The position numbers and the translations under genes are program-made. A stretch of DNA of 58,887 bases, the filler included. It is 4 parts of 4 records of this genome, joined end to end, with 100 filler letters (N's around TTAATTAATTAA, not from the genome) between each part and the next. Parts side by side here need not be neighbours in the genome. Positions count along the whole stretch, not along the records: positions 1 to 21,509 come from SRR22947725_136; 3 more parts are not named here. One strand, written 5' to 3'. The notes beneath the pieces were generated by a model, which saw nothing but the letters and a program-made list of their open reading frames with translations, ran no database searches and was not told the DNA's origin. Of the stretch, positions 78 through 9,907 are shown in pieces. Numbering within the stretch: the first letter of the stretch is position 1; each line of letters starts with the position of its first letter.

Positions 78-107
78 AATGAATAAAGCTATATAGCTTT
101 ATTCATT
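78..107. terminator. Perfect 30-bp palindrome, probable bidirectional terminator
   Basis: AATGAATAAAGCTATATAGCTTTATTCATT is its own reverse complement. It lies at the convergent 3' ends of the PPase fragment (stop 69) and mmsB (stop 99-101, which it overlaps). Confidence 0.6.
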
Positions 108-971
108 AAATTTTGTTATGGCAGAAAAATCTAAGTCACCTTTTTTTTGGTTTACCATATTCCCAAAGCTTTCTTGAGCTTTCGTTCCAAAAGGTGCAGA
201 TGTGTTTGTGCTTTGTATAGCTTTAAGAGCTATACTTAAATCTTTAAACATTAAGCTTGCTGAAAAACCTGGTTCAAAGTTATTGTCTGCAGGACTTTGA
301 GGTCCTACCCCCTTAATAGGACAATAATTATTTATAGCCCAACAAGAGCTAGTGGAAGTTGATAATATTTCAAATAGTTTTTGAGGATCCAACCCTAAAT
401 TTTTACCTAAGTTGAAAGCTTCTCCTACACCAATCATAGTCGTTGCTAACAGCATATTATTACATGCTTTTGTGGCTTGTCCTGTTCCATAAGACCCACA
501 CAGAAGTGATTTTTTTCCCATTACTTCAAATAATGGTAACATTATTTTATAGGCGTTTTCTGTGCCACCTACCATAAAAGTTAGAGTGCCATTTTCAGCA
601 CCACCAACACCACCTGAAACTGGAGCATCAAGAGACAAAAGTTTTCTATCTTCACATTTTTTGTGTAAAATTTTTGCTTGATCAACATCAATAGTGGAGC
701 AGTCTGTTATCAATGTACCCGGCCTTAAGCTATCTATAATGCTGTCTAAGACTTGCTTTACAACGTCTCCATTAGGTAACATTGTGATTATTATATCTAT
801 ATCTTTTGGTATATCATTTAAATCAGAAGCTTTTTTAAGTCCTTTTGGTAAAAGTTGTTTTACAAATTCTTCATTAATATCATAGCCAATAACTTCGTAA
901 TTAGCATTCAAAAGGTTTGTTACCATTCGAGCACCCATGTTGCCTAAGCCAACAAAACCGACTTTTTTCAT
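99..971 (-). CDS. mmsB: 3-hydroxyisobutyrate dehydrogenase
   Basis: GFVGLGNMG Rossmann motif, LDAPVSGG, GTLTFMVGG, KACNN, and the YCPxxGVGPxSPADxxFEPGF tail typical of HIBADH. Confidence 0.9.
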   Translation of the reverse strand: MKKVGFVGLGNMGARMVTNLLNANYEVIGYDINEEFVKQLLPKGLKKASDLNDIPKDIDIIITMLPNGDVVKQVLDSIIDSLRPGTLITDCSTIDVDQAKILHKKCEDRKLLSLDAPVSGGVGGAENGTLTFMVGGTENAYKIMLPLFEVMGKKSLLCGSYGTGQATKACNNMLLATTMIGVGEAFNLGKNLGLDPQKLFEILSTSTSSCWAINNYCPIKGVGPQSPADNNFEPGFSASLMFKDLSIALKAIQSTNTSAPFGTKAQESFGNMVNQKKGDLDFSAITKFNE

Positions 972-2122
972 TTTAATTCTCCTTTATTAAGACATTCAGA
1001 TAGAGGGATGGTTTGACTTTTAATTATACGCTCTGAGGTTAGAATTTTTTGGTTGATTTGTAAATCTTGCTTTAAGCCAAACAAATAAGGATACCATTCT
1101 CTCGATAATTTACTATTCCATTTCCACAAAAGAAAATCTAATTTTTCAATATCTTCCATCTTAATTTTAAGAGATTGAGTGGATGGATTTAAACCGAAAT
1201 CTGGCTTTAGAAAATATTTTTTAATATTGAGAAAAGCATTTGGAACATTATGAATGTTTAAAATATTTTCCCATTCTATTTTTGAAAGTTTCCCAATTAT
1301 ACTTTTCCCAAATATATCTAAAACCAAAAGATCTGTTTTTATTAAACCTGTAGGATTAACCATTATATTCTTAACGTTTTCTCTTCCTAAAGTTGGTCCT
1401 ATAAAAAAGCGTCGTGGACAATAATCATTGGCATAAAAGTTATCCCAAATAATGATCTGATTGGATAATATTTTTTTAACTTTTTGATAATTTTTATAAG
1501 TTTTAGCAACTACATTTTTACCACAATAAAATACTTTTATATTAGGGTTCAATGTTTTGCTTAAATCTTGCAGGTAAGTGGGATCATTACGTATTAATTC
1601 ATCAGCATAAACTCTTGGTACAAAAAATATATTTTGCCCTAATTTATCGGATAGTTTATTTGCTAAAATAGCATGATACGTGCCTTCAGATATATCAATG
1701 CCAAATTTTTTTTTAAAATCGTTGGGAATATCGTCTAACATTAAAGCGATAGAATTAGCTCCATCCTCAAGTAATTGTTTTGCTTTTTTAAATAGTAATT
1801 CGAAATCTGAGTTTTCATTATTTATAGAAACATTGTGTAATTCTTTAAAATTAAAATCTAGTCCAGGAGCAACTCCAGCTATAACATTTATGTTATTTTT
1901 TTTACTTAATTGAGTGAACTTCTGAAAACTAAGACGCCAATTTTTACTATATTTTTTCCTCCAACATAATCTATGACAAACATCCTCTTTGGGAGCATAG
2001 AAATAAGTGTTCATCTTGTTTTTATGAAGTGATTTGATTATAAGTTCTCTGTTTTCCCAGGATAATAATCTTCCATAGTATCCTTCTATATACCCGATGA
2101 TGTTATTTCCATTGTTTTTCAT
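968..2122 (-). CDS. GH84 beta-N-acetylglucosaminidase (O-GlcNAcase/NAGidase family), no signal peptide
   Basis: GYIEGYYG, YAPKED..HR..WR, catalytic LDD, WDNFYANDY and MVNP motifs. Start placed at ATG 2122 to avoid overlap with the divergent gene. Stop overlaps the mmsB ATG (ATGA). Confidence 0.85.
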   Translation of the reverse strand: MKNNGNNIIGYIEGYYGRLLSWENRELIIKSLHKNKMNTYFYAPKEDVCHRLCWRKKYSKNWRLSFQKFTQLSKKNNINVIAGVAPGLDFNFKELHNVSINNENSDFELLFKKAKQLLEDGANSIALMLDDIPNDFKKKFGIDISEGTYHAILANKLSDKLGQNIFFVPRVYADELIRNDPTYLQDLSKTLNPNIKVFYCGKNVVAKTYKNYQKVKKILSNQIIIWDNFYANDYCPRRFFIGPTLGRENVKNIMVNPTGLIKTDLLVLDIFGKSIIGKLSKIEWENILNIHNVPNAFLNIKKYFLKPDFGLNPSTQSLKIKMEDIEKLDFLLWKWNSKLSREWYPYLFGLKQDLQINQKILTSERIIKSQTIPLSECLNKGELK

Positions 2123-2178
2123 TTGATATCTTTTTGAATATTGCAATACTATATTATCTTAATTGGGAGAAAAATATA

Positions 2179-2868
2179 ATGAAAGTTTTAGGGATTGGCG
2201 CTCACCCTGATGATATTGAAATTTTTATGTATGGTTTGCTTTCTATTTATAAAAAAGAAGGTCATCAAGTTTATACAATGATTGCTACTGATGGTGCAAA
2301 AGGAGGTGCATATACAGGTAATAAATTGGCCAAGGAAAGAGCTAATGAAGCTATTAGTGGCTTAGAAAAATTATCTTCACCAATTTTCTTAAACTTACCA
2401 GATGGCGAATTAGGTGGAGAATTAGAACATAGAAAAATTATAAAAGAGAATATTTTAAAAATCATGCCTGATTTAATTATTACACACTCTGAAGATGATT
2501 ATCACGCAGATCACAAGTCATTATCTTTAATAACTAAAGGAGCAGTAAGTCATTATATTCCAATTTTATATTGTGATACTTTAATGGGCATTAATTTTCA
2601 TCCTAATTATTATGTTGATATAACTAATTATCAAGAGTCAAAAAAAGAGGCTGTTCTTAAACATAAAACACAAAAACCTGATAGATTTGTGGATTTGTTT
2701 GAGTTAATGAACTCTTATAGGGCTGCTCAATGTAACGCTCCAAAAGGGAACTATGCTGAGGCATATAGTTTTGTACCTTCATTTCCTTTTTCAGACATAA
2801 GAGAAATTTTGCCATCTCCTCTTAAATTAAGACCATTTCACATAGAAAACCAGCATGGTTTTTTATAG
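2179..2868 (+). CDS. PIG-L/LmbE family N-acetylglucosaminyl deacetylase
   Basis: GAHPDDIE and DYHADH zinc motifs; ATG 2179 preceded by GGAGA. Confidence 0.85.
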   Translation: MKVLGIGAHPDDIEIFMYGLLSIYKKEGHQVYTMIATDGAKGGAYTGNKLAKERANEAISGLEKLSSPIFLNLPDGELGGELEHRKIIKENILKIMPDLIITHSEDDYHADHKSLSLITKGAVSHYIPILYCDTLMGINFHPNYYVDITNYQESKKEAVLKHKTQKPDRFVDLFELMNSYRAAQCNAPKGNYAEAYSFVPSFPFSDIREILPSPLKLRPFHIENQHGFL

Positions 2869-3960
2869 TTATAGATATTTATATAACTTTCCACCTGAAG
2901 ATGGTTTTGACACTCCGGTTGTCGAAGGAAATGTGAATGGAAGTTTATATATTGATCTGGCTGATAAATAAGCTATTAACTCTGCCTCAATATAATCAAA
3001 GTTAATCCCAATTTTTTTTTCACTAAAAACCTTTATTTTTAATTTATCTTTAAGACGGTCTATTAAATAAATATTTCTATAACCTCCTCCTGTTATTATA
3101 ATATTTTCAACTTTTTTAGGTAAAAATTCTAAACTAGTAATAATAGTTTCAACGGTTAATTCAGCTAATGTTGCCATTATGTCGTGAACAGAGTAATTTT
3201 TTTTTATAAGTTCATTATAAAAATATAAAAAAGTCTGTCTATCGAGAGATTTTGGAGGTGGTTTTTTAAAAAAATCAAATTTTAAAAAATTTATAATTTC
3301 TTCTTTAATAGGAGTCCCTTTGGAAGCAAGAATTCCGTCTTTATCATAACTTTCATTTAATGCGCTAGTCATAAAATCATCCATTAATGCATTCCCAGGC
3401 CCGGTATCAAAACCAATTAATGTTTCTCCGTCCCAGTATGTTAAATTAGAAATACCACCTATATTTAAAAAACAGCATGGTAGTTTTATATCTAATGTTT
3501 CCAAGATAAATTTATGGTATATAGGTGCTATTGGTGCTCCCTGTCCTCCTAAAGAGAGATCCTTTGACCTAAAGTCAAAAATAACGTTTTTATTTAACAT
3601 TTGTGCTAGTTTTTTAGGGTTGCCTAATTGAACAGAAATCTTATTATCCGGGTCATGATAAAGTGTTTGGCCATGGAAACCTATTAATTCACAAGAGCTT
3701 AGAATATCTAAATTTTTTAAAGCTAAATAATGTTCATTAGTGATAAAATCATCTAAATAATCTTTTCTTTTTAAATTAAAATTCAGATCTTCTTTTACAA
3801 TACTCGTTAATGTTTTCTTAGTTTTAGTATTGTATTCATAGAAATAATTCCGATTCAATCTCTTTAAATGCAAGCCATTTGTTTGTACTAAACTAATATC
3901 TATACCATCCATACTAGTACCAGTCATCAAACCAACGATATTTAAAAAATTATATTTCAA
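2869..3960 (-). CDS. anmK: Anhydro-N-acetylmuramic acid kinase
   Basis: GLMTGTSMDGID, GFHGQT, DFRxxDxxxGGQGAP, NIGGISN, FDTGPGN and PPKSLDR motifs; TTG start. Confidence 0.95.
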   Translation of the reverse strand: MKYNFLNIVGLMTGTSMDGIDISLVQTNGLHLKRLNRNYFYEYNTKTKKTLTSIVKEDLNFNLKRKDYLDDFITNEHYLALKNLDILSSCELIGFHGQTLYHDPDNKISVQLGNPKKLAQMLNKNVIFDFRSKDLSLGGQGAPIAPIYHKFILETLDIKLPCCFLNIGGISNLTYWDGETLIGFDTGPGNALMDDFMTSALNESYDKDGILASKGTPIKEEIINFLKFDFFKKPPPKSLDRQTFLYFYNELIKKNYSVHDIMATLAELTVETIITSLEFLPKKVENIIITGGGYRNIYLIDRLKDKLKIKVFSEKKIGINFDYIEAELIAYLSARSIYKLPFTFPSTTGVSKPSSGGKLYKYL

Positions 3961-4011
3961 AATAGATACCTAATTAATATCTTTTTTTTATTCTAACTAT
4001 ATTATAATAAT

Positions 4012-4761
4012 ATGGATAATAATATATCAAAAACTGAACTTTTATATACTAAGAGCAAACCGCTTGACCATTTAACTATATTTGATGGCATTATGCTAAT
4101 GATCGAACAGCAAGCTCAGGCTGTTACAGATGTAAAAAAAGCTCATAAACAAATTGAAAATGCAATAAATAAAATAGTTAAGCAATTAACAGTAAATCAA
4201 AATAGTAGGTTAATTTATGTTGGAGCAGGCACTTCTGGTAGAATAGGTGTGCAAGATGGTGTTGAGCTCTTTCCAACTTTCAATTGGCCAGAAGAGCGAT
4301 TAGACTTTATAATAGCTGGAGGGAAAAAAGCCTTATTAAACGCAGTTGAAAATGCTGAGGATAATATTTACAATGCAAAAAAAATTGTAAACGATAAAAC
4401 TATAAACTCAAAAGATATAATTATTGGTTTAGCAGCAAGTGGAAACACACCATTCACTTGCAAGGTTTTGGAAGAATGCTTTAACAGAGGTGCTTTGACA
4501 ATTGCAATAAGTAATAATCCTAAAGGCAAACTTTTAAATTATGGCAAAATAAAAATTACCTTGGATACAAAAGAAGAAATTATAGCAGGGTCAACCAGAC
4601 TAAAAGCAGGTACTGCGCAAAAAATATGTTTAAACATAATTTCATCAATGGTTATGACCAAGCTTGGAAGAGTAAGAAATGGATATATGAATGCAATGGT
4701 TCCAACCAACCGTAAATTAAGAAAAAGACAAGAGTTTATACAAAATAAACTTTTAAAATAG
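4012..4761 (+). CDS. murQ: N-acetylmuramic acid 6-phosphate etherase (short form)
   Basis: YVGAGTSGRIG, DGVELFPTF, AVENAED, AASGNTPF and GSTRLKAGTAQK motifs. Confidence 0.92.
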   Translation: MDNNISKTELLYTKSKPLDHLTIFDGIMLMIEQQAQAVTDVKKAHKQIENAINKIVKQLTVNQNSRLIYVGAGTSGRIGVQDGVELFPTFNWPEERLDFIIAGGKKALLNAVENAEDNIYNAKKIVNDKTINSKDIIIGLAASGNTPFTCKVLEECFNRGALTIAISNNPKGKLLNYGKIKITLDTKEEIIAGSTRLKAGTAQKICLNIISSMVMTKLGRVRNGYMNAMVPTNRKLRKRQEFIQNKLLK

Positions 4762-4809
4762 TGTAAAGCTATTTAAAGTAAAAAAATAAATATACTGAGA
4801 TTTTTTATT

Positions 4810-5874
4810 ATGATTAATAACATTATAATTCAGGAATATTATAATTTTTTTATTTTATTTTTTTCATCAGCCTCTTTTTCTTTTTTCTTTATAAAATTCT
4901 TTCCTATTATTAAGAATCATATATATCATTCAAATGGACCACAAAAAATACATACAGGGGATGTATCAAGATTAGGTGGTCTATCTATTTTTTTATCATT
5001 TTGCGTAATGTTATTTTATCAAGAAACTTTTCAAATTAAAATAACCGAGTATTTAATTTGTTTTTTGCCAGTATTTCTCATAGGTTTAGTAGAAGACATA
5101 ACTCAACGAGTAAAACCAACTATAAGATTAATGTCTGCTTTTATAAGTTCCGTGATATTTATCTATATTACTGATATCACAATCAATAGATTAGGGTTTT
5201 ATATTGGTGATTTATTCTTAAACTATAAACCATTATCAATGGTATTTACTATTTTATGTATTGCTTATTTAACACAGGCGTTTAACATTATTGATGGTTT
5301 GAATGGGTTAAGTTTGTGCACAAGCATAATTTGCCTCTTATCATTGGCAATCATTTCTGAAAATAATTTCAATTACTTAATTTTTCAGCAATCTTTGAAT
5401 TTAATATTCATTTTGTTGGGTGTATTATTATTTAACTTTTTTGGAAAAATATTTATAGGAGATTCTGGCGCTTATTTAATAGGATTCATCATTGCAACAA
5501 TAGCTATAAATTTAAGTGTAAATAATCACTACTTATCACCGTTTGTAATAGTATTGATTTTATTCTATCCTTCTTGGGAATTATTAAGAACCATATTGAG
5601 AAGGTTTTTAAATAAAAAAAATATTTTTAGTCCAGATGCTAAGCATTTACATAGTTTGTTATATTCAAATAATTTAAAGAGGTTTAAATTTAGTAATTTC
5701 AAAACTAATCTTTTTACTTCTCTTCAAATTATTTTTTTTCAATTAGTAATTTTTATATATGTAATAAGTTTTTATAGAAATGAAAATCTATTGATTTTAG
5801 GGATAGCAATATCTATATCATTTTATGAGCTTATCTATAAAATTGAAAAAAATTATTTAAATAAACAAGCTTAA
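4810..5874 (+). CDS. MraY/WecA-family polyprenyl-phosphate N-acetylhexosamine-1-phosphate transferase
   Basis: Multi-TM protein with PQKIH..RLGG, NIIDGLNGL, IFIGDSGAY and PDxxHLHS motifs. Confidence 0.85.
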   Translation: MINNIIIQEYYNFFILFFSSASFSFFFIKFFPIIKNHIYHSNGPQKIHTGDVSRLGGLSIFLSFCVMLFYQETFQIKITEYLICFLPVFLIGLVEDITQRVKPTIRLMSAFISSVIFIYITDITINRLGFYIGDLFLNYKPLSMVFTILCIAYLTQAFNIIDGLNGLSLCTSIICLLSLAIISENNFNYLIFQQSLNLIFILLGVLLFNFFGKIFIGDSGAYLIGFIIATIAINLSVNNHYLSPFVIVLILFYPSWELLRTILRRFLNKKNIFSPDAKHLHSLLYSNNLKRFKFSNFKTNLFTSLQIIFFQLVIFIYVISFYRNENLLILGIAISISFYELIYKIEKNYLNKQA

Positions 5875-5879
5875 ATAGT

Positions 5880-6644
5880 CTAGTTAATTTCATTAAAATC
5901 AAGTATTTTAATTAATTTGTTATCTTTCTCTATTCTACATCTAATATTTTGTAGTGGTTCAATAACTGTTTTCATATGAAAAGCATTAGCATGGATACAA
6001 TTTAAATGATCTATCATTATACCAACATGCCCTTCCCAAAAAATAACTGCGCCACGAGAAAGATTTTTTGTTGATGTTATAAGTTTTTTTGGTAGTTTGA
6101 TCTGGTCAGATGTGTTTCTGGGTATCATTTCTCCATAAGTTGCGTAGGAAAGTTGAAGCAAGGCAGAGCAATCGATTCCTATTGTATCTCGTCCCCCCCA
6201 TTTATAAGGTGTATTAATTAATTGTTCAGCTTTGCTAACCCAATCTTTAATTTTTTTATCAATTTGGATAATATGTTTACTAGGTACATAACCTTGTAGA
6301 CAAATGTGTTTTCTCGACAAGAGAACTTTTGACCAATTATCATCAATTTCTACTACGCAAATTTGAGAACCCATTGGGAGATAATGGATTATACTTGCTT
6401 TTATATCTTTTTTTTCAAAAATAAATGTTCTTTTGTTTAGCACTCTATGAGTTGCTTTTCCTAAATATTCAACTCCTTCTTTTTTTATCCATCCATAATA
6501 ATTGTCTGTTTTTAGGATACAAAATAACCAATCTGAATGTGTATCTAAAATTTCTATAGATTCACCAAACAAGCATTCAGTCTCAAGATTTAAACTGTCA
6601 TCAGGCTTTTTTCTCATTACAATTGAAGGTTTAACTATATTCAT
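5880..6644 (-). CDS. NlpC/P60 (C40) peptidase with N-terminal SH3b-like domains
   Basis: PYKWGG..GIDCS, GHVG and IHAN catalytic motifs; YYGWI and GYVP SH3b-like segments. ATG 6644 overlaps the amidase stop (ATGA). Confidence 0.88.
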   Translation of the reverse strand: MNIVKPSIVMRKKPDDSLNLETECLFGESIEILDTHSDWLFCILKTDNYYGWIKKEGVEYLGKATHRVLNKRTFIFEKKDIKASIIHYLPMGSQICVVEIDDNWSKVLLSRKHICLQGYVPSKHIIQIDKKIKDWVSKAEQLINTPYKWGGRDTIGIDCSALLQLSYATYGEMIPRNTSDQIKLPKKLITSTKNLSRGAVIFWEGHVGIMIDHLNCIHANAFHMKTVIEPLQNIRCRIEKDNKLIKILDFNEIN

Positions 6645-7045
6645 ATATTCTTTATTTTTAACCATTCACCAACATTAAAGTTAGGACATGTTTTTAAAGT
6701 TTGACCGGTATCGCAATGACCTAGTATGTCTGCATTAGGATATTTATTTCTCCATTCTCTTAAAACCTTTTCTAAAGAAATATACTGTTTTTCTGTAAAA
6801 TGATTTCTTCCAATAAGACATACTCCTAGACTTACATCATTTTTACCCTTGACATGGGCTCCAACCCAGTATTCTGGTCTACCGTTTTGAATTTCACCAG
6901 ATCTAAGAATTACTTTATGATACCCAATACCATCCCAACTAAACCCTAAATGCATTTTATGAATGTCAGATGCTTCTAGTTCTTTTTCATTTTCAGTGTC
7001 TGAACAATGAATAACCAATAATTTAATATTTTGAGAATGGAGCAT
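6641..7045 (-). CDS. N-acetylmuramoyl-L-alanine amidase (Amidase_2, T7-lysozyme-like)
   Basis: VIHCS, IGYH, GR..GAH, GHxD and KTCP zinc-amidase motifs; 134 aa, no signal peptide. Confidence 0.88.
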   Translation of the reverse strand: MLHSQNIKLLVIHCSDTENEKELEASDIHKMHLGFSWDGIGYHKVILRSGEIQNGRPEYWVGAHVKGKNDVSLGVCLIGRNHFTEKQYISLEKVLREWRNKYPNADILGHCDTGQTLKTCPNFNVGEWLKIKNI

Positions 7046-7183: not shown

Positions 7184-8848
7184 TTATAAATTTAAATTAC
7201 GGTCACAGTATGGTATGAGTTCTTTTTTATGTGTTATAAAAATTACTGTTATAAGATTTTCCTTACAAAACTTAAAAAGGTTTTTTAATATTTTGTGTTC
7301 GGTTTTTGAATCTAGTGCATTAGTAGCTTCGTCTAATATTAAGATTCTTGGTCTTTGATATAAAGCACGAGCTATTCCAAGTCTTTGTCTTTGTCCTCCA
7401 GACATAGCAGAACCACCTTGTGTGATTATTTCGTGAAAACCATTTTTAAGAGTTTTAAACCAACTTTCTAAATCAACTAATTTTAAAACATCATTGACAT
7501 TTTTGATATTGCTATTTTCAGCTGTATCTAAAATGATATTTTCAAGTACTGTGCCATGAAAAATAAAAATTTCTTGAGGAACATAACTGGCTCCCTTTTT
7601 TTTGTAACAATCTTTACCAGGTACAACGGATCCTTTTGCTGGGTCTAAAAACCCTAAAATTAAATTAACTAAAGTTGATTTCCCAGTTCCAGATTTACCA
7701 GTAACAGCTACAAATTCACCTTCTTTAATTTCCATATTAAACTTGTGGAAAATATTAATTTTAGGGTTGTAGTTAAAACTAACGTTAGAAAACTTAATAT
7801 TTCCAGAAATATATTCTTTTTTGAATTTTTGGTCATTTTTGACATTTAAACTTTTATGAAACTTCATTTGATATAAAAAATCTGAAACAGAATCCTCATT
7901 AGACTTTATATACGTCCATCCAGAAAATGCAGCCTGAAAATACGGCATAAAACGCTGAAGTGCAAAAACTATGGCGGCAACAAAGGGAAAGTAATCAGAA
8001 AAATTTTGGTAACCGTCTACCATAAATATAAATATAAAAATTAATGTAATTAAAGCTGGCTCTATAATTAACCTAGGAGTAGCAGAAATTATACGTGAGA
8101 ATGCACTTGAAAATAATGTATTTTTTGCAAAATTTGAAAATTGATTATTTAAAAATGGTTCAGCTTTGTAAAGTTTCAACTCTCGATAACCTGCTTTTTT
8201 TATTAGTGCTAGTCGAGACATATTTTCATATCCCTGGTTAATTAAAGTACTGCAATTTTTTAAAATTTGTCTTAATTTATACATTATTAAAAAATACAAA
8301 ATTGCTATTAATGTTATAGCTAAAAGAACTAAAGGCCCCACAAACGTAATAAGAAAAATTAATAATAAGATTAAAAGGATAAACGAAGATACTATACTTA
8401 ATAATGGAATTATTAGCCCTTCAATCACTGCGGTTAATTTAACAGTAACAGTTGTAACAAAGTAATCTGTTGGTTTGTTATTAACACTTAAAAATTCTCT
8501 ATTACTTATTCCCTTGAAGATCTTAACACAAAGCTCGTATCCTATAATGAATGCAATTTTGTTTTGTAGCCAAAGGTAAAAAAATCTTAAGCTATATGAA
8601 ACGAATAAAATCGCTAAAAATATTATAGCTAATTCAATGAATGTTTTTTTCTGATCTAATTCTAGCCAAGGTAGAATATTAATAAAGCTGTTTGAACTTT
8701 TACCTAGAACAACATTAATTAGAGGAATGACCGCCCCTATACTTACTAATTCGGCAATAGACGCTAGCAGAGAAATAAAAAGAACCAAAATCATTAAGTA
8801 AGTTTGTTTTTTGCTTAAATATGCATATAATTTAAAAATATTATTCAG
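7184..8848 (-). CDS. ABC exporter (fused TMD-NBD), glycan/lipid-linked oligosaccharide flippase type
   Basis: Hydrophobic N-terminal half, GKSGTGKST, SGGQRQR and LDEATNALD. The frame is open upstream of ATG 8794 to a CTG at 8848. Confidence 0.85.
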   Translation of the reverse strand: MNNIFKLYAYLSKKQTYLMILVLFISLLASIAELVSIGAVIPLINVVLGKSSNSFINILPWLELDQKKTFIELAIIFLAILFVSYSLRFFYLWLQNKIAFIIGYELCVKIFKGISNREFLSVNNKPTDYFVTTVTVKLTAVIEGLIIPLLSIVSSFILLILLLIFLITFVGPLVLLAITLIAILYFLIMYKLRQILKNCSTLINQGYENMSRLALIKKAGYRELKLYKAEPFLNNQFSNFAKNTLFSSAFSRIISATPRLIIEPALITLIFIFIFMVDGYQNFSDYFPFVAAIVFALQRFMPYFQAAFSGWTYIKSNEDSVSDFLYQMKFHKSLNVKNDQKFKKEYISGNIKFSNVSFNYNPKINIFHKFNMEIKEGEFVAVTGKSGTGKSTLVNLILGFLDPAKGSVVPGKDCYKKKGASYVPQEIFIFHGTVLENIILDTAENSNIKNVNDVLKLVDLESWFKTLKNGFHEIITQGGSAMSGGQRQRLGIARALYQRPRILILDEATNALDSKTEHKILKNLFKFCKENLITVIFITHKKELIPYCDRNLNL

Positions 8849-8863
8849 ATTATGACCCTTTGG

Positions 8864-9907
8864 CTAAGTTCTTAGGTGATTTTTTAAATAATTTGCTATC
8901 TTTTCACTAGCATTACCATCACCAAAAGGATTTTCCTCTTGGGATTTAATCTTTTCACTAATTGAATTCCAAAGTTTATTTTTCCCATCCCCTAAAGTTT
9001 CAGGCCACTCTGTAGTATCACGCATAGTTGTAGTAGGGATTTTAAAGAAAAATGCTTCTTTTTGCATGCCCCCTGAGTCAGTAAAAAAATGGGTGCAATT
9101 TTGAAGAAGCCATTGAGTTTCTAAATAACCTTGGGGTGGCAGAGATATAAATTTTGAAGTATCAATATCATATTCTTTTACTTTTTTAGCTGTATGTGGG
9201 TGAATGAGAAGGAGCTTAAAAAAACTATTAGATAAATCTAAAACATACTCTATTCTTTTTAATAAATTTTTTTTTGAAATTAAGGCATCAGCTCTATGTA
9301 TTGTAATTAAGTCATAATTTCCTCTTACAACTTCTGGAGGCAATTGCTTTGGTCGTACAAAATATTTTTTAAATCTTTTAGATGCGTCAAGCATAACGTC
9401 CCCTGAAAAATAGACATTTTTCGATATACCCTCATCAGTTAGGTTTTTTACAGCTGTGTTTGTAGGACAAAAAAGTATATCACTTAAATGATCTGAAATA
9501 ATACGATTTTGTTCTTCTGGCATTGTTTTGTCAAATGATCTTAGCCCTGCTTCGACGTGAACAAGCTTGATTGATAATTGTTTGGCAACCAGTGATCCTG
9601 CTAAAGTACTTACAGTATCACCTAGAACAACAATACATTTAGGTTTAATTTTAGCAACTAGAATCTCCAAATCTTTAATCATTGAAGAAAGCATTTTCAA
9701 CTTTGACAACCCACCATTACTCAAAGTGTAGTCTGGGGGAGGTTGATCTAATTGATCAAAAAAAACTTTTGACATATTGTGTTCATAATGTTGGCCTGTA
9801 TCAATTAAAATCTCATTAATACCAGCGTTAACGTACTCTTTCCTTAAAGTAAGGCATTTAATGAATTGAGGACGAGTTCCCATAATTGTAAGTACATCCG
9901 TATCCAT
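8864..9907 (-). CDS. wecB: Non-hydrolysing UDP-GlcNAc(-derivative) 2-epimerase, WecB/WbpI-like
   Basis: GTRPQFIK, TGQHY, GDT, HVEAGLRS, MPEE and TDSGGMQKEA motifs. Confidence 0.85.
   Translation of the reverse strand: MDTDVLTIMGTRPQFIKCLTLRKEYVNAGINEILIDTGQHYEHNMSKVFFDQLDQPPPDYTLSNGGLSKLKMLSSMIKDLEILVAKIKPKCIVVLGDTVSTLAGSLVAKQLSIKLVHVEAGLRSFDKTMPEEQNRIISDHLSDILFCPTNTAVKNLTDEGISKNVYFSGDVMLDASKRFKKYFVRPKQLPPEVVRGNYDLITIHRADALISKKNLLKRIEYVLDLSNSFFKLLLIHPHTAKKVKEYDIDTSKFISLPPQGYLETQWLLQNCTHFFTDSGGMQKEAFFFKIPTTTMRDTTEWPETLGDGKNKLWNSISEKIKSQEENPFGDGNASEKIANYLKNHLRT

Follow-up and report, generated by a model that had tools for sequence, protein, structure and literature searches.

How might a bacterium recover the sugars and peptides of its own cell wall when two enzymes of the familiar pathway, the glycosidase NagZ and the deacetylase NagA, appear to have been exchanged for members of other families? 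The question is raised by a gene cluster in the 58,887-nucleotide (nt) stretch of DNA analyzed here, referred to below as the window; positions are coordinates of the whole window, and gene calls come from an open reading frame (ORF) listing together with Pfam and NCBIfam scans. The window DNA resembles that of low-GC SAR116 (Puniceispirillales), a streamlined marine alphaproteobacterium, and the cluster region has a G+C content of about 28%. A GH84 glycoside hydrolase, a PIG-L/LmbE deacetylase, AnmK, MurQ, a peptidase and an amidase lie together and form a genuine, conserved module for the recycling or salvage of muropeptides. With a probability of roughly 0.6, the cluster would be the sugar-and-peptide core of cytoplasmic muropeptide recycling or salvage, with GH84 and PIG-L at the NagZ and NagA steps, as the first-pass annotation had proposed. 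This reading builds on the identity of the genes, their catalytic motifs and their conserved clustering, together with the finding of no GH3, GH20 or NagA in the relatives searched; the substrates of GH84 and PIG-L are predicted from these, that of PIG-L being most likely N-acetylglucosamine 6-phosphate (GlcNAc-6P), with free N-acetylglucosamine (GlcNAc) or both as possibilities. The members of the cluster are as follows.

968-2122, minus strand: GH84 glycoside hydrolase, 384 amino acids (ORF listed as 968-2146); Pfam PF07555 (NAGidase), 1.3e-47
2123-2178, no strand: divergent intergenic region between GH84 and PIG-L, 56 nt, sequence read; presumed shared promoter region
2179-2868, plus strand: PIG-L/LmbE (CE14) protein, 229 amino acids (ORF listed as 2134-2868); Pfam PF02585, 2.1e-22
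2869-3960, minus strand: AnmK, 363 amino acids; NF007141, 362.4 bits versus a cut-off of 352; Pfam PF03702, 2.8e-73
4012-4761, plus strand: short form of MurQ, 249 amino acids; NF003915, 272.8 bits versus a cut-off of 168
5880-6665, minus strand: SH3b-NlpC/P60 peptidase; Pfam SH3_16, 7.6e-13, and NLPC_P60, 5.8e-15
6641-7045, minus strand: Amidase_2 protein, 134 amino acids; Pfam PF01510, 2.5e-14

In the proposed pathway, an AmpG-family permease would allow the entry of peptides bearing GlcNAc and anhydro-N-acetylmuramic acid (GlcNAc-anhMurNAc-peptides), the small, T7-lysozyme-like Amidase_2 protein would remove the stem peptide, and the YkfC-like SH3b-NlpC/P60 enzyme would cleave it. GH84 would carry out the NagZ step by splitting GlcNAc from anhMurNAc, AnmK and MurQ would convert anhMurNAc to GlcNAc-6P and D-lactate, and PIG-L (CE14) would carry out the NagA step, yielding glucosamine(-6P) for GlmM/GlmU.

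The GH84 protein scores 163 bits against PF07555 (cut-off of 25), which places it in the family. Its best solved match is the catalytic domain of human OGA (6e-32), and OgOGA is matched at 3e-24. The sequence MLDDI aligns with LFDDI of human OGA and WDNFYANDY with WDNIHANDY; we take the Asp-Asp pair to be catalytic and the WDN..ANDY motif to be sugar binding. None of the genes of the cluster matches GH3, the family of NagZ (PF00933). The protein is proposed as a candidate cytoplasmic GlcNAc-anhMurNAc hydrolase, which with respect to NagZ would be a functional analogue at most. GH84 enzymes work by substrate-assisted catalysis, for which the acetamido (N-acetyl) group of the substrate is required, and deacetylation of the disaccharide before its cleavage is therefore ruled out.

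The distribution of GH84 was determined in 151 genomes of the order that contains the relative G001. GH84 is present in 103 and AnmK in 104 of these; 100 have both, 3 have only GH84, 4 have only AnmK, and 44 have neither. GH3 was found in 0/151 genomes (10/14 reference genomes used as control) and GH20 likewise in 0/151 (3/14 reference genomes), leaving GH84 as the one recognised beta-N-acetylglucosaminidase family seen in the genomes of the order. These counts, and the fact that two bacterial classes have GH84 in a cluster with AmpG, amidase, AnmK and MurQ, bear out the placing of GH84 at the NagZ step, and GH84 is quite probably the NagZ analogue of the SAR116 cluster. The comparison with nagZ that the first-pass annotation had called for gave no GH3 in the order and a mixed picture outside SAR116.

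Among 44 GH84-bearing genomes of other lineages, two of Myxococcota also have a NagZ-sized GH3, and the GH3 proteins of the SAR86-like members are exclusively of the BglX type (~800 amino acids); the SAR86 GH84 genes stand among housekeeping genes, with unrelated neighbors. Only 8 of 401 alphaproteobacterial genomes contain GH84, and the five outside SAR116 carry another subfamily (22-25% identity), again with unrelated neighbors; GH3 is present in three of these five genomes (NagZ-sized in two) and AnmK in two. In view of these lineages, a role in recycling is suggested for one clade of GH84 only. A physiological role for bacterial O-GlcNAcase-like proteins in general, as first put forward, does not follow from these genomes.

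The likeness of the protein to human OGA and OgOGA also fits a true O-GlcNAcase that acts on proteins, an activity suggested for other cytosolic GH84 enzymes of bacteria too, and whose neighbors are coincidental, and bacterial OGAs cleave O-GlcNAc proteins in vitro, according to the available portions of the papers describing them (PMC2973230, PMC4683255). As for the O-GlcNAc transferase family, GT41 (OGT-like) proteins occur in 23/103 genomes with GH84 and in 11/48 without it, and in neither G001 nor G012. The rate is the same with and without GH84, which argues against a link to O-GlcNAc transferase. GH84 instead tracks AnmK, with both present in 100 of the 107 genomes having either, and in two classes its neighbors are those of a conserved muropeptide cluster, which makes the O-GlcNAcase explanation very improbable.

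The conservation of the cluster was assessed by a GH84 scan of species-representative genomes, which retrieved 103 relatives, of which 80 were kept, and by tblastn comparison of the window proteins to those loci. The closest relatives (82-89% identity) are SAR116/Puniceispirillales single-cell genomes and metagenome-assembled genomes (MAGs). SAR116 loci have the order Amidase_2-NlpC-(gap)-MurQ-AnmK-PIG-L-GH84, kept down to 38% GH84 identity, and in Granulosicoccaceae (Gammaproteobacteria) the module reads NlpC-M19-Amidase_2-AmpG-GH84-AnmK-MurQ, without PIG-L. A scan centered on PIG-L placed this gene between GH84 and AnmK in 67/84 loci, down to 44% identity, some of the 84 loci being on the same contigs as in the GH84 scan. 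The arrangement recurs in dozens of loci, far beyond chance. The neighborhood survey suggested in the first-pass annotation thus revealed clustering of GH84 and PIG-L with anmK and murQ that is conserved in dozens of SAR116 loci, and of GH84, AnmK and MurQ also in Granulosicoccaceae. Several in-frame stops are present in GH84 of two genomes (G093:C25:3332-5896; G075:C5:601189-601973) and in AnmK of G093, with the neighboring PIG-L intact; these may reflect decay of the cluster or sequencing error.

The PIG-L protein belongs to PF02585, with 80.5 bits against a cut-off of 28.2. Its AHPDD and HxDH motifs (H9, D11, D12, H109 and H112) are invariant in 9/9 proteins of the cluster type, as are R54, K155 and R181, which may be candidates for phosphate binding. 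Among solved structures it is matched best by archaeal diacetylchitobiose deacetylases (8bgn, 1.8e-11; PH0499, 1e-8). These features suggest a candidate zinc deacetylase of GlcNAc-6P and/or GlcNAc, proposed here as a NagA analogue. It is not NagA itself, a CE9 enzyme of the amidohydrolase fold, as the two folds are unrelated. The top NCBIfam matches of PIG-L are models of the bacillithiol deacetylase BshB, all below cut-off; the BshB equivalog TIGR04001 gives 69 bits versus 182.5. Among longer proteins homologous to the cluster PIG-L subfamily no fusion to NagB was found. In favor of the proposed role, the available part of PMC13198582 includes a nagB-PIGL fusion in its list of genes for amino sugars. 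Three longer homologues were inspected as fused forms: two are TPR fusions, and the third, a MurE/PIG-L C-terminal chimera, was judged to be an assembly artefact, being carried by a single 1.9-kb contig and missing the AHPDD motif. A separate PIG-L-domain protein of ~810-880 amino acids, distinct from the cluster type, is carried by certain SAR116 genomes, for the most part ones with NagA or without GH84 (G007, G011, G015, G019, G023, G027, G040, G098, G110, G111, G123, G133 and G145).

The distribution of PIG-L was compared with that of NagA, which was called at E <= 1e-20; PIG-L was scored as adjacent when within 2.5 kb of GH84. Of the 151 genomes of the order, 25 have NagA and 101 have PIG-L. 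The 103 genomes with GH84 comprise 79 with adjacent PIG-L and no NagA, 16 with NagA and no adjacent PIG-L, and 8 with neither; in other words, adjacent PIG-L occurs in 79/87 GH84 genomes lacking NagA and in 0/16 having it. NagA lies within 10 kb of GH84 in 8 of these 16 genomes, and in one SAR116 group a true NagA (TIGR00221, 267.7 bits versus 225.65) is part of the cluster. Three cluster types are thereby distinguished: PIG-L between GH84 and AnmK, NagA next to AnmK, and GH84 abutting AnmK without a deacetylase. No NagA was found in 5/5 relatives searched, one of them a complete chromosome. In Granulosicoccaceae, 10/11 genomes have NagA and none of their 11 GH84 loci has PIG-L; PIG-L genes elsewhere in this family were rejected as orthologues of the window gene, as their products are unlike the window protein in 4/4 genomes tested. 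A GH84 tree of 88 rows joins SAR116 and Granulosicoccaceae in a single clade (SH-like approximate likelihood ratio test [SH-aLRT], 99). In this tree the loci with PIG-L are paraphyletic; the genomes with NagA fall into one clade and those with neither deacetylase into two.

Several observations weigh against this reading of the cluster. The genome-wide counts and absences come from the genomes of relatives, mostly MAGs and single-amplified genomes. Just 3 changes on the GH84 tree account for the adjacency of PIG-L, giving 3 independent pairs, too few for a sign test; the Fisher test of complementarity between PIG-L and NagA (p = 3e-13, uncorrected for phylogeny) therefore overstates the evidence. 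Two of the eight genomes with neither deacetylase are contig-end cases (G052, G086) and six are real: G002, G006, G022, G030, G043 and G067 keep GH84, AnmK and MurQ without NagA or PIG-L, and G002 is a complete chromosome. It follows that a deacetylase is not obligatory or that a third solution exists. Outside SAR116, PIG-L has its nearest homologues (43-46% identity) in Mesorhizobium, Rhizobiaceae and a gammaproteobacterial MAG; their neighbors are unrelated, and 4/5 of their genomes have NagA. SAR86-like genomes with GH84, most of them with AnmK, have NagA in 0/25 and PIG-L in 3/25 cases. Four Granulosicoccaceae genomes have a NagZ-sized GH3 in addition to GH84. In the two genomes of the PIG-L type tested for it (G001 and G012), no GlcNAc kinase of the ROK or BadF type was found. 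Moreover, the closest solved relatives of PIG-L act on unphosphorylated GlcNAc or chitobiose, and the available portion of PMC12017989 assigns GlcNAc moieties of oligosaccharides to CE14 and GlcNAc-6P to CE9 alone.

Two side observations belong to these groups of genomes. The loci of the six genomes with neither deacetylase (L043, from G002; L083, from G022; L098-L100; L102) keep the series AmpG-amidase-peptidase-MurQ-AnmK-GH84-M19. Outside SAR116, a link of PIG-L with the cell wall is hinted at only by a Rhizobiaceae MAG (L183:5984-7033), whose PIG-L homologue (46% identity) is one gene away from a GH25 muramidase.

The replacement of NagA by PIG-L, as originally claimed, therefore stands in part: the distribution is complementary (79 versus 16 genomes), and no NagA genome has an adjacent PIG-L, yet the pattern goes back to about three events, too few independent pairs for the anti-correlation to carry far, six genomes have neither gene, and homologues coexist with NagA. 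On balance, a NagA analogue acting on GlcNAc-6P is favored slightly over the other readings of PIG-L taken together, and activity on either GlcNAc-6P or GlcNAc is more probable than activity on GlcNAc-6P alone.

The kinases bring in a different assignment, in which PIG-L, like the archaeal diacetylchitobiose deacetylase (Dac), would deacetylate the free GlcNAc released by GH84, a Glk-family kinase would phosphorylate the glucosamine, and GlcNAc-6P would be handled otherwise or as a side activity. A Glk-family kinase is present in 5/5 genomes tested, with one each in G001 and G012; the latter two genomes also have no NagB. The NagA-type genome G040, for its part, has four ROK matches, one BadF match and a NagB-like gene. 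GlcNAc freed by GH84 would thus be without an obvious kinase, which would permit PIG-L to use free GlcNAc, followed by Glk on glucosamine. The same assignment is in line with the match of PIG-L to archaeal Dac (1.8e-11), with the coexistence of PIG-L homologues and NagA in Mesorhizobium, and with the unphosphorylated GlcNAc moieties on which CE14 is described as acting in the available part of PMC12017989. It would, however, provide no outlet for the GlcNAc-6P made by MurQ; PIG-L is complementary to NagA, a GlcNAc-6P enzyme that is sometimes inside the same cluster; and the kinase evidence comes from 5 genomes only. This assignment is considered unlikely; GlcNAc-6P is ranked first as the PIG-L substrate, possibly with GlcNAc, because the MurQ product needs an outlet.

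The genomes with neither deacetylase point to a further alternative, that no deacetylation is needed: GlcNAc-6P would proceed directly towards UDP-GlcNAc, PIG-L would have some other target, such as a thiol, lipid or glycan precursor that carries GlcNAc, and would owe its position to a historical accident in one SAR116 lineage. Six SAR116 and 22/25 SAR86-like genomes with GH84, and mostly with AnmK, have neither NagA nor PIG-L, and the top NCBIfam matches of PIG-L are the subthreshold BshB models. A beta-phosphoglucomutase-family HAD hydrolase, perhaps a phosphatase or mutase that handles sugar phosphates in the pathway, also adjoins the amidase in 5/5 of the loci with neither deacetylase and in 30/55 of the PIG-L loci that could be judged, and in 0/8 loci with NagA in the cluster. 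On the other hand, PIG-L is wedged between GH84 and AnmK in 67/84 loci, down to 44% identity, and is beside GH84 in 0/16 NagA genomes, which renders this alternative improbable. The NagA-independent route of mycobacteria offers a precedent for the genomes with neither enzyme, as far as the available part of PMC13691567 describes it. The HAD gene is divergent to the amidase gene (L043:4559-5242, L083:15529-16248, L014:2842-3702) and its product is below all equivalog cut-offs. Its presence in the 30 PIG-L loci rules it out as a third solution confined to the genomes with neither deacetylase, and its score of 27-37 bits versus a cut-off of 359 sets it apart from MupP.

The remaining enzymes of the cluster agree with the proposed pathway to different degrees. 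AnmK passes the cut-off of its equivalog NF007141. MurQ passes the subfamily model NF003915 and is below the cut-off of the equivalog TIGR00274 (197.5 bits versus 302); it aligns with residues 20-244 of 303 in 4lzj, and the C-terminal ~55 residues of solved MurQ proteins are absent. The short length is common to relatives, with 254 amino acids in L014 and 261 in L083. The peptidase is matched over both domains by the solved NlpC/P60-family protein 3h41, which we take to be YkfC, and by 3pvq (DPP VI), and has a cysteine in the motif GIDCS. An SH3b-NlpC/P60 enzyme of the YkfC/DPP VI type is proposed to cut free stem peptides between L-Ala-gamma-D-Glu and the diamino acid. The nearest solved match of Amidase_2 is T7 lysozyme (3.2e-17), with alignment of HCS, the histidine of 'aH'/'gH', and CP.F, which presumably provide the Zn ligands. 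This protein scores 54 bits against the Amidase_2 model (cut-off of 26) and 31 bits against the AmpD equivalog (cut-off of 143), is 51-73% identical across SAR116 and Granulosicoccaceae, and is proposed to be a T7-lysozyme-like N-acetylmuramoyl-L-alanine amidase, analogous to AmpD.

Further members are added by the relatives. An AmpG-family permease is part of their cluster (TIGR00901, 483 and 373 bits versus 350 in L043 and L002); AmpG and a YkuD-fold gene lie ~3 kb past HIBADH in L002-L009, which corresponds to a position off the left edge of the window, and AmpG is not in the window. The YkuD-fold protein paired with AmpG (L002:14139-16145, with equivalents in L003-L009; L081:9097-11176) is cytoplasmic, has 182-199 amino acids and a GCIAL motif, and lacks a signal peptide; it gives no match to solved structures at E <= 0.01. 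LdcA (S66) was found in 0/5 genomes tested, and the YkuD-fold protein is a candidate L,D-carboxypeptidase in its place. In many clusters of SAR116 and Granulosicoccaceae, the gene immediately next to GH84 encodes an M19 dipeptidase (L043:11119-12150; L081:6853-8046; L020:6754-7809), which may hydrolyze the L-Ala-D-Glu left by the YkfC-like peptidase. The window has no M19, and HIBADH occupies that position. Most loci with NagA in the cluster (L081, L082, L088, L092, L093 and L096) gave no detectable MurQ between NagA and AnmK, the exceptions being L089 and L094; the gene after NagA in L081 encodes a dehydrogenase of the Ldh_2 family (malate/lactate type).

The description of these genes as a full cytoplasmic route proved too strong, in view of the ROK/BadF-type GlcNAc kinase found in 0/2 PIG-L-type genomes and LdcA in 0/5 genomes. 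A more ambitious scheme, to be held tentatively and judged rather doubtful as a whole, is that SAR116 recycling would feature three fold replacements, namely the GH84 hydrolase, a CE14/PIG-L enzyme as the first non-CE9 GlcNAc-6P (or dual GlcNAc/GlcNAc-6P) deacetylase, and a YkuD-fold L,D-carboxypeptidase for LdcA, alongside a sister lineage with neither NagA nor PIG-L and a deacetylase-free or further route.

The layout of the locus in the window was read directly. The gene positions and the gaps of 56, 0 and 51 nt given by the first-pass annotation are exact once the ATG starts of GH84 and PIG-L, at 2122 and 2179, are used; the TTG starts listed for both genes are over-extended, and a GGGAGA motif lies 5' of the PIG-L ATG. 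Its statement that obvious signal peptides are missing was also confirmed, as none is seen in the N termini of GH84, PIG-L, NlpC/P60 and Amidase_2, and the domain matches of AnmK and MurQ begin at residues 6-8. Its contiguous run has the correct gene order, and misses both the alternation of strands and a GT4 gene between murQ and the peptidase. From GH84 to Amidase_2 the strands read - + - + + - -, with GH84/PIG-L and AnmK/MurQ as divergent pairs and PIG-L/AnmK as a convergent pair. Because the strands alternate, the cluster is not one operon. Four RNA libraries from three studies contain short contigs that match stretches of GH84, PIG-L and AnmK (90-100% likeness). They hint weakly that relatives transcribe these genes, and carry-over of DNA could also account for them; murQ, NlpC/P60 and most of GT4 have little or no contig cover, which is evidence neither way. 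The other annotated features in and around the cluster are as follows.

99-971, minus strand: HIBADH; TIGR01692 equivalog, 333 bits versus a cut-off of 291.6
4810-5874, plus strand: GT4 (WecA/MraY-like) polytopic membrane transferase, 354 amino acids; Pfam PF00953, 7.4e-27
7184-8794, minus strand: PglK-like ABC exporter (ORF listing and Pfam/NCBIfam scans)
8864-9907, minus strand: WecB (ORF listing and Pfam/NCBIfam scans)

HIBADH overlaps the stop of GH84 by 4 nt and holds the same position throughout the low-GC SAR116 subclade; no pathway link is evident for it. A run of genes on the minus strand from 7184 to 28247, opened by the PglK-like exporter and WecB, the two genes of the run annotated here, abuts the recycling cluster. 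It looks like a surface-polysaccharide locus, of which the GT4 gene may be a part. PIG-L proper is a deacetylase of lipid-linked GlcNAc, and with GT4 inside the cluster of the window and the exporter and WecB directly after it, GH84 and PIG-L could be thought to belong to this adjacent locus and to trim or deacetylate lipid-linked GlcNAc intermediates. In the relatives, however, the GT4 query gave 0 matches in 80 loci in the interval between MurQ and NlpC/P60; NlpC/P60 abuts MurQ in four of the closest (L002, L006-L008), and L003 and L004 have an unannotated gap of ~1.1 kb there. The order GH84-PIG-L-AnmK-MurQ is also kept in loci with other flanks and no glycan genes, so that a surface-glycan role for the two enzymes is highly unlikely. 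The GT4 gene, which adjoins the surface-glycan island, is probably a lineage-specific insertion outside the pathway.

Compared with recycling of the Escherichia coli type (AmpG, NagZ, AmpD, LdcA, AnmK, MurQ, NagK and NagA), the proposed pathway has the same logic and intermediates, and the AmpG-family permease, AnmK and MurQ are orthologous. The place of AmpD is taken by an amidase of the Amidase_2 fold. GH3 NagZ is not found (151/151 genomes of the order), and a GH84 is in the cluster instead; NagA is not found in the PIG-L-type genomes, whose cluster has a CE14 enzyme; and LdcA is not found (5/5), with a cytoplasmic YkuD-fold protein beside AmpG. NagK of the ROK/BadF type is not found in 2/2 PIG-L-type genomes, and the stem peptide is here apparently degraded, by the YkfC-like peptidase and M19. 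The peptidase shares its SH3b-NlpC/P60 architecture with YkfC of Bacillus subtilis and Bacillus cereus and with DPP VI of Bacteroides, its best full-length solved matches, which are cytoplasmic and act on free stem peptides; in contrast to those systems, YkfA and YkfB are missing and the partner in relatives is an M19 dipeptidase. The N-acetylmuramic acid (MurNAc) bypass of the Pseudomonas type (AnmK, MupP, AmgK and MurU) has AnmK in common with the cluster, and many SAR116 loci have the HAD hydrolase beside the amidase; however, MurQ is present here and the HAD protein is far below the MupP cut-off.

Archaeal Dac proteins (CE14; Thermococcus and Pyrococcus), the closest solved relatives of PIG-L, share its AHPDD and HxDH motifs and are likened to it as enzymes that remove N-acetyl groups from GlcNAc units in salvage. 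Dac acts on chitobiose and GlcNAc ahead of a glucosamine-specific glycosidase. In the bacterial, cytoplasmic peptidoglycan recycling proposed here, by contrast, the acetyl-requiring GH84 must act first, and GlcNAc-6P would be the product to deacetylate. The GH84 protein has the same TIM barrel, Asp-Asp pair and sugar-binding motif as human OGA, OgOGA (2xsa) and TtOGA (5diy), and no signal peptide; unlike these, the SAR116 protein is uncorrelated with GT41/OGT and embedded in a muropeptide cluster. The available portions of the OgOGA and TtOGA papers make no link between those enzymes and peptidoglycan recycling (PMC2973230, PMC4683255).

What is known of peptidoglycan recycling comes almost wholly from a handful of gammaproteobacteria; SAR116 and SAR86 rank with the most abundant bacteria of the surface ocean. 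In the literature, excluding supplements, we found no study that joins GH84, anhMurNAc, LmbE/NagA or SAR116 to such a recycling pathway; the available text of a preprint on a SAR86 MAG lists GH84 with "peptidoglycan recycling" in passing (10.1101/2022.08.12.503524). What is new, judging from the genes, is the GH84/PIG-L version of an already known recycling pathway. If the proposal is true, one clade of cytosolic bacterial GH84 enzymes, so far studied only as stand-ins for human OGA, would acquire a physiological substrate, and GlcNAc(-6P) deacetylase activity would be added to CE14, CE9 alone being credited with it in the available part of PMC12017989. Cell-wall amino sugars are a sizeable pool of marine organic nitrogen, and annotation pipelines that seek NagZ and NagA would mis-score such organisms as unable to recycle or salvage them. 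The genomes with neither deacetylase would point to yet another route, and enzymes of the O-GlcNAcase and PIG-L types would have a new everyday job.

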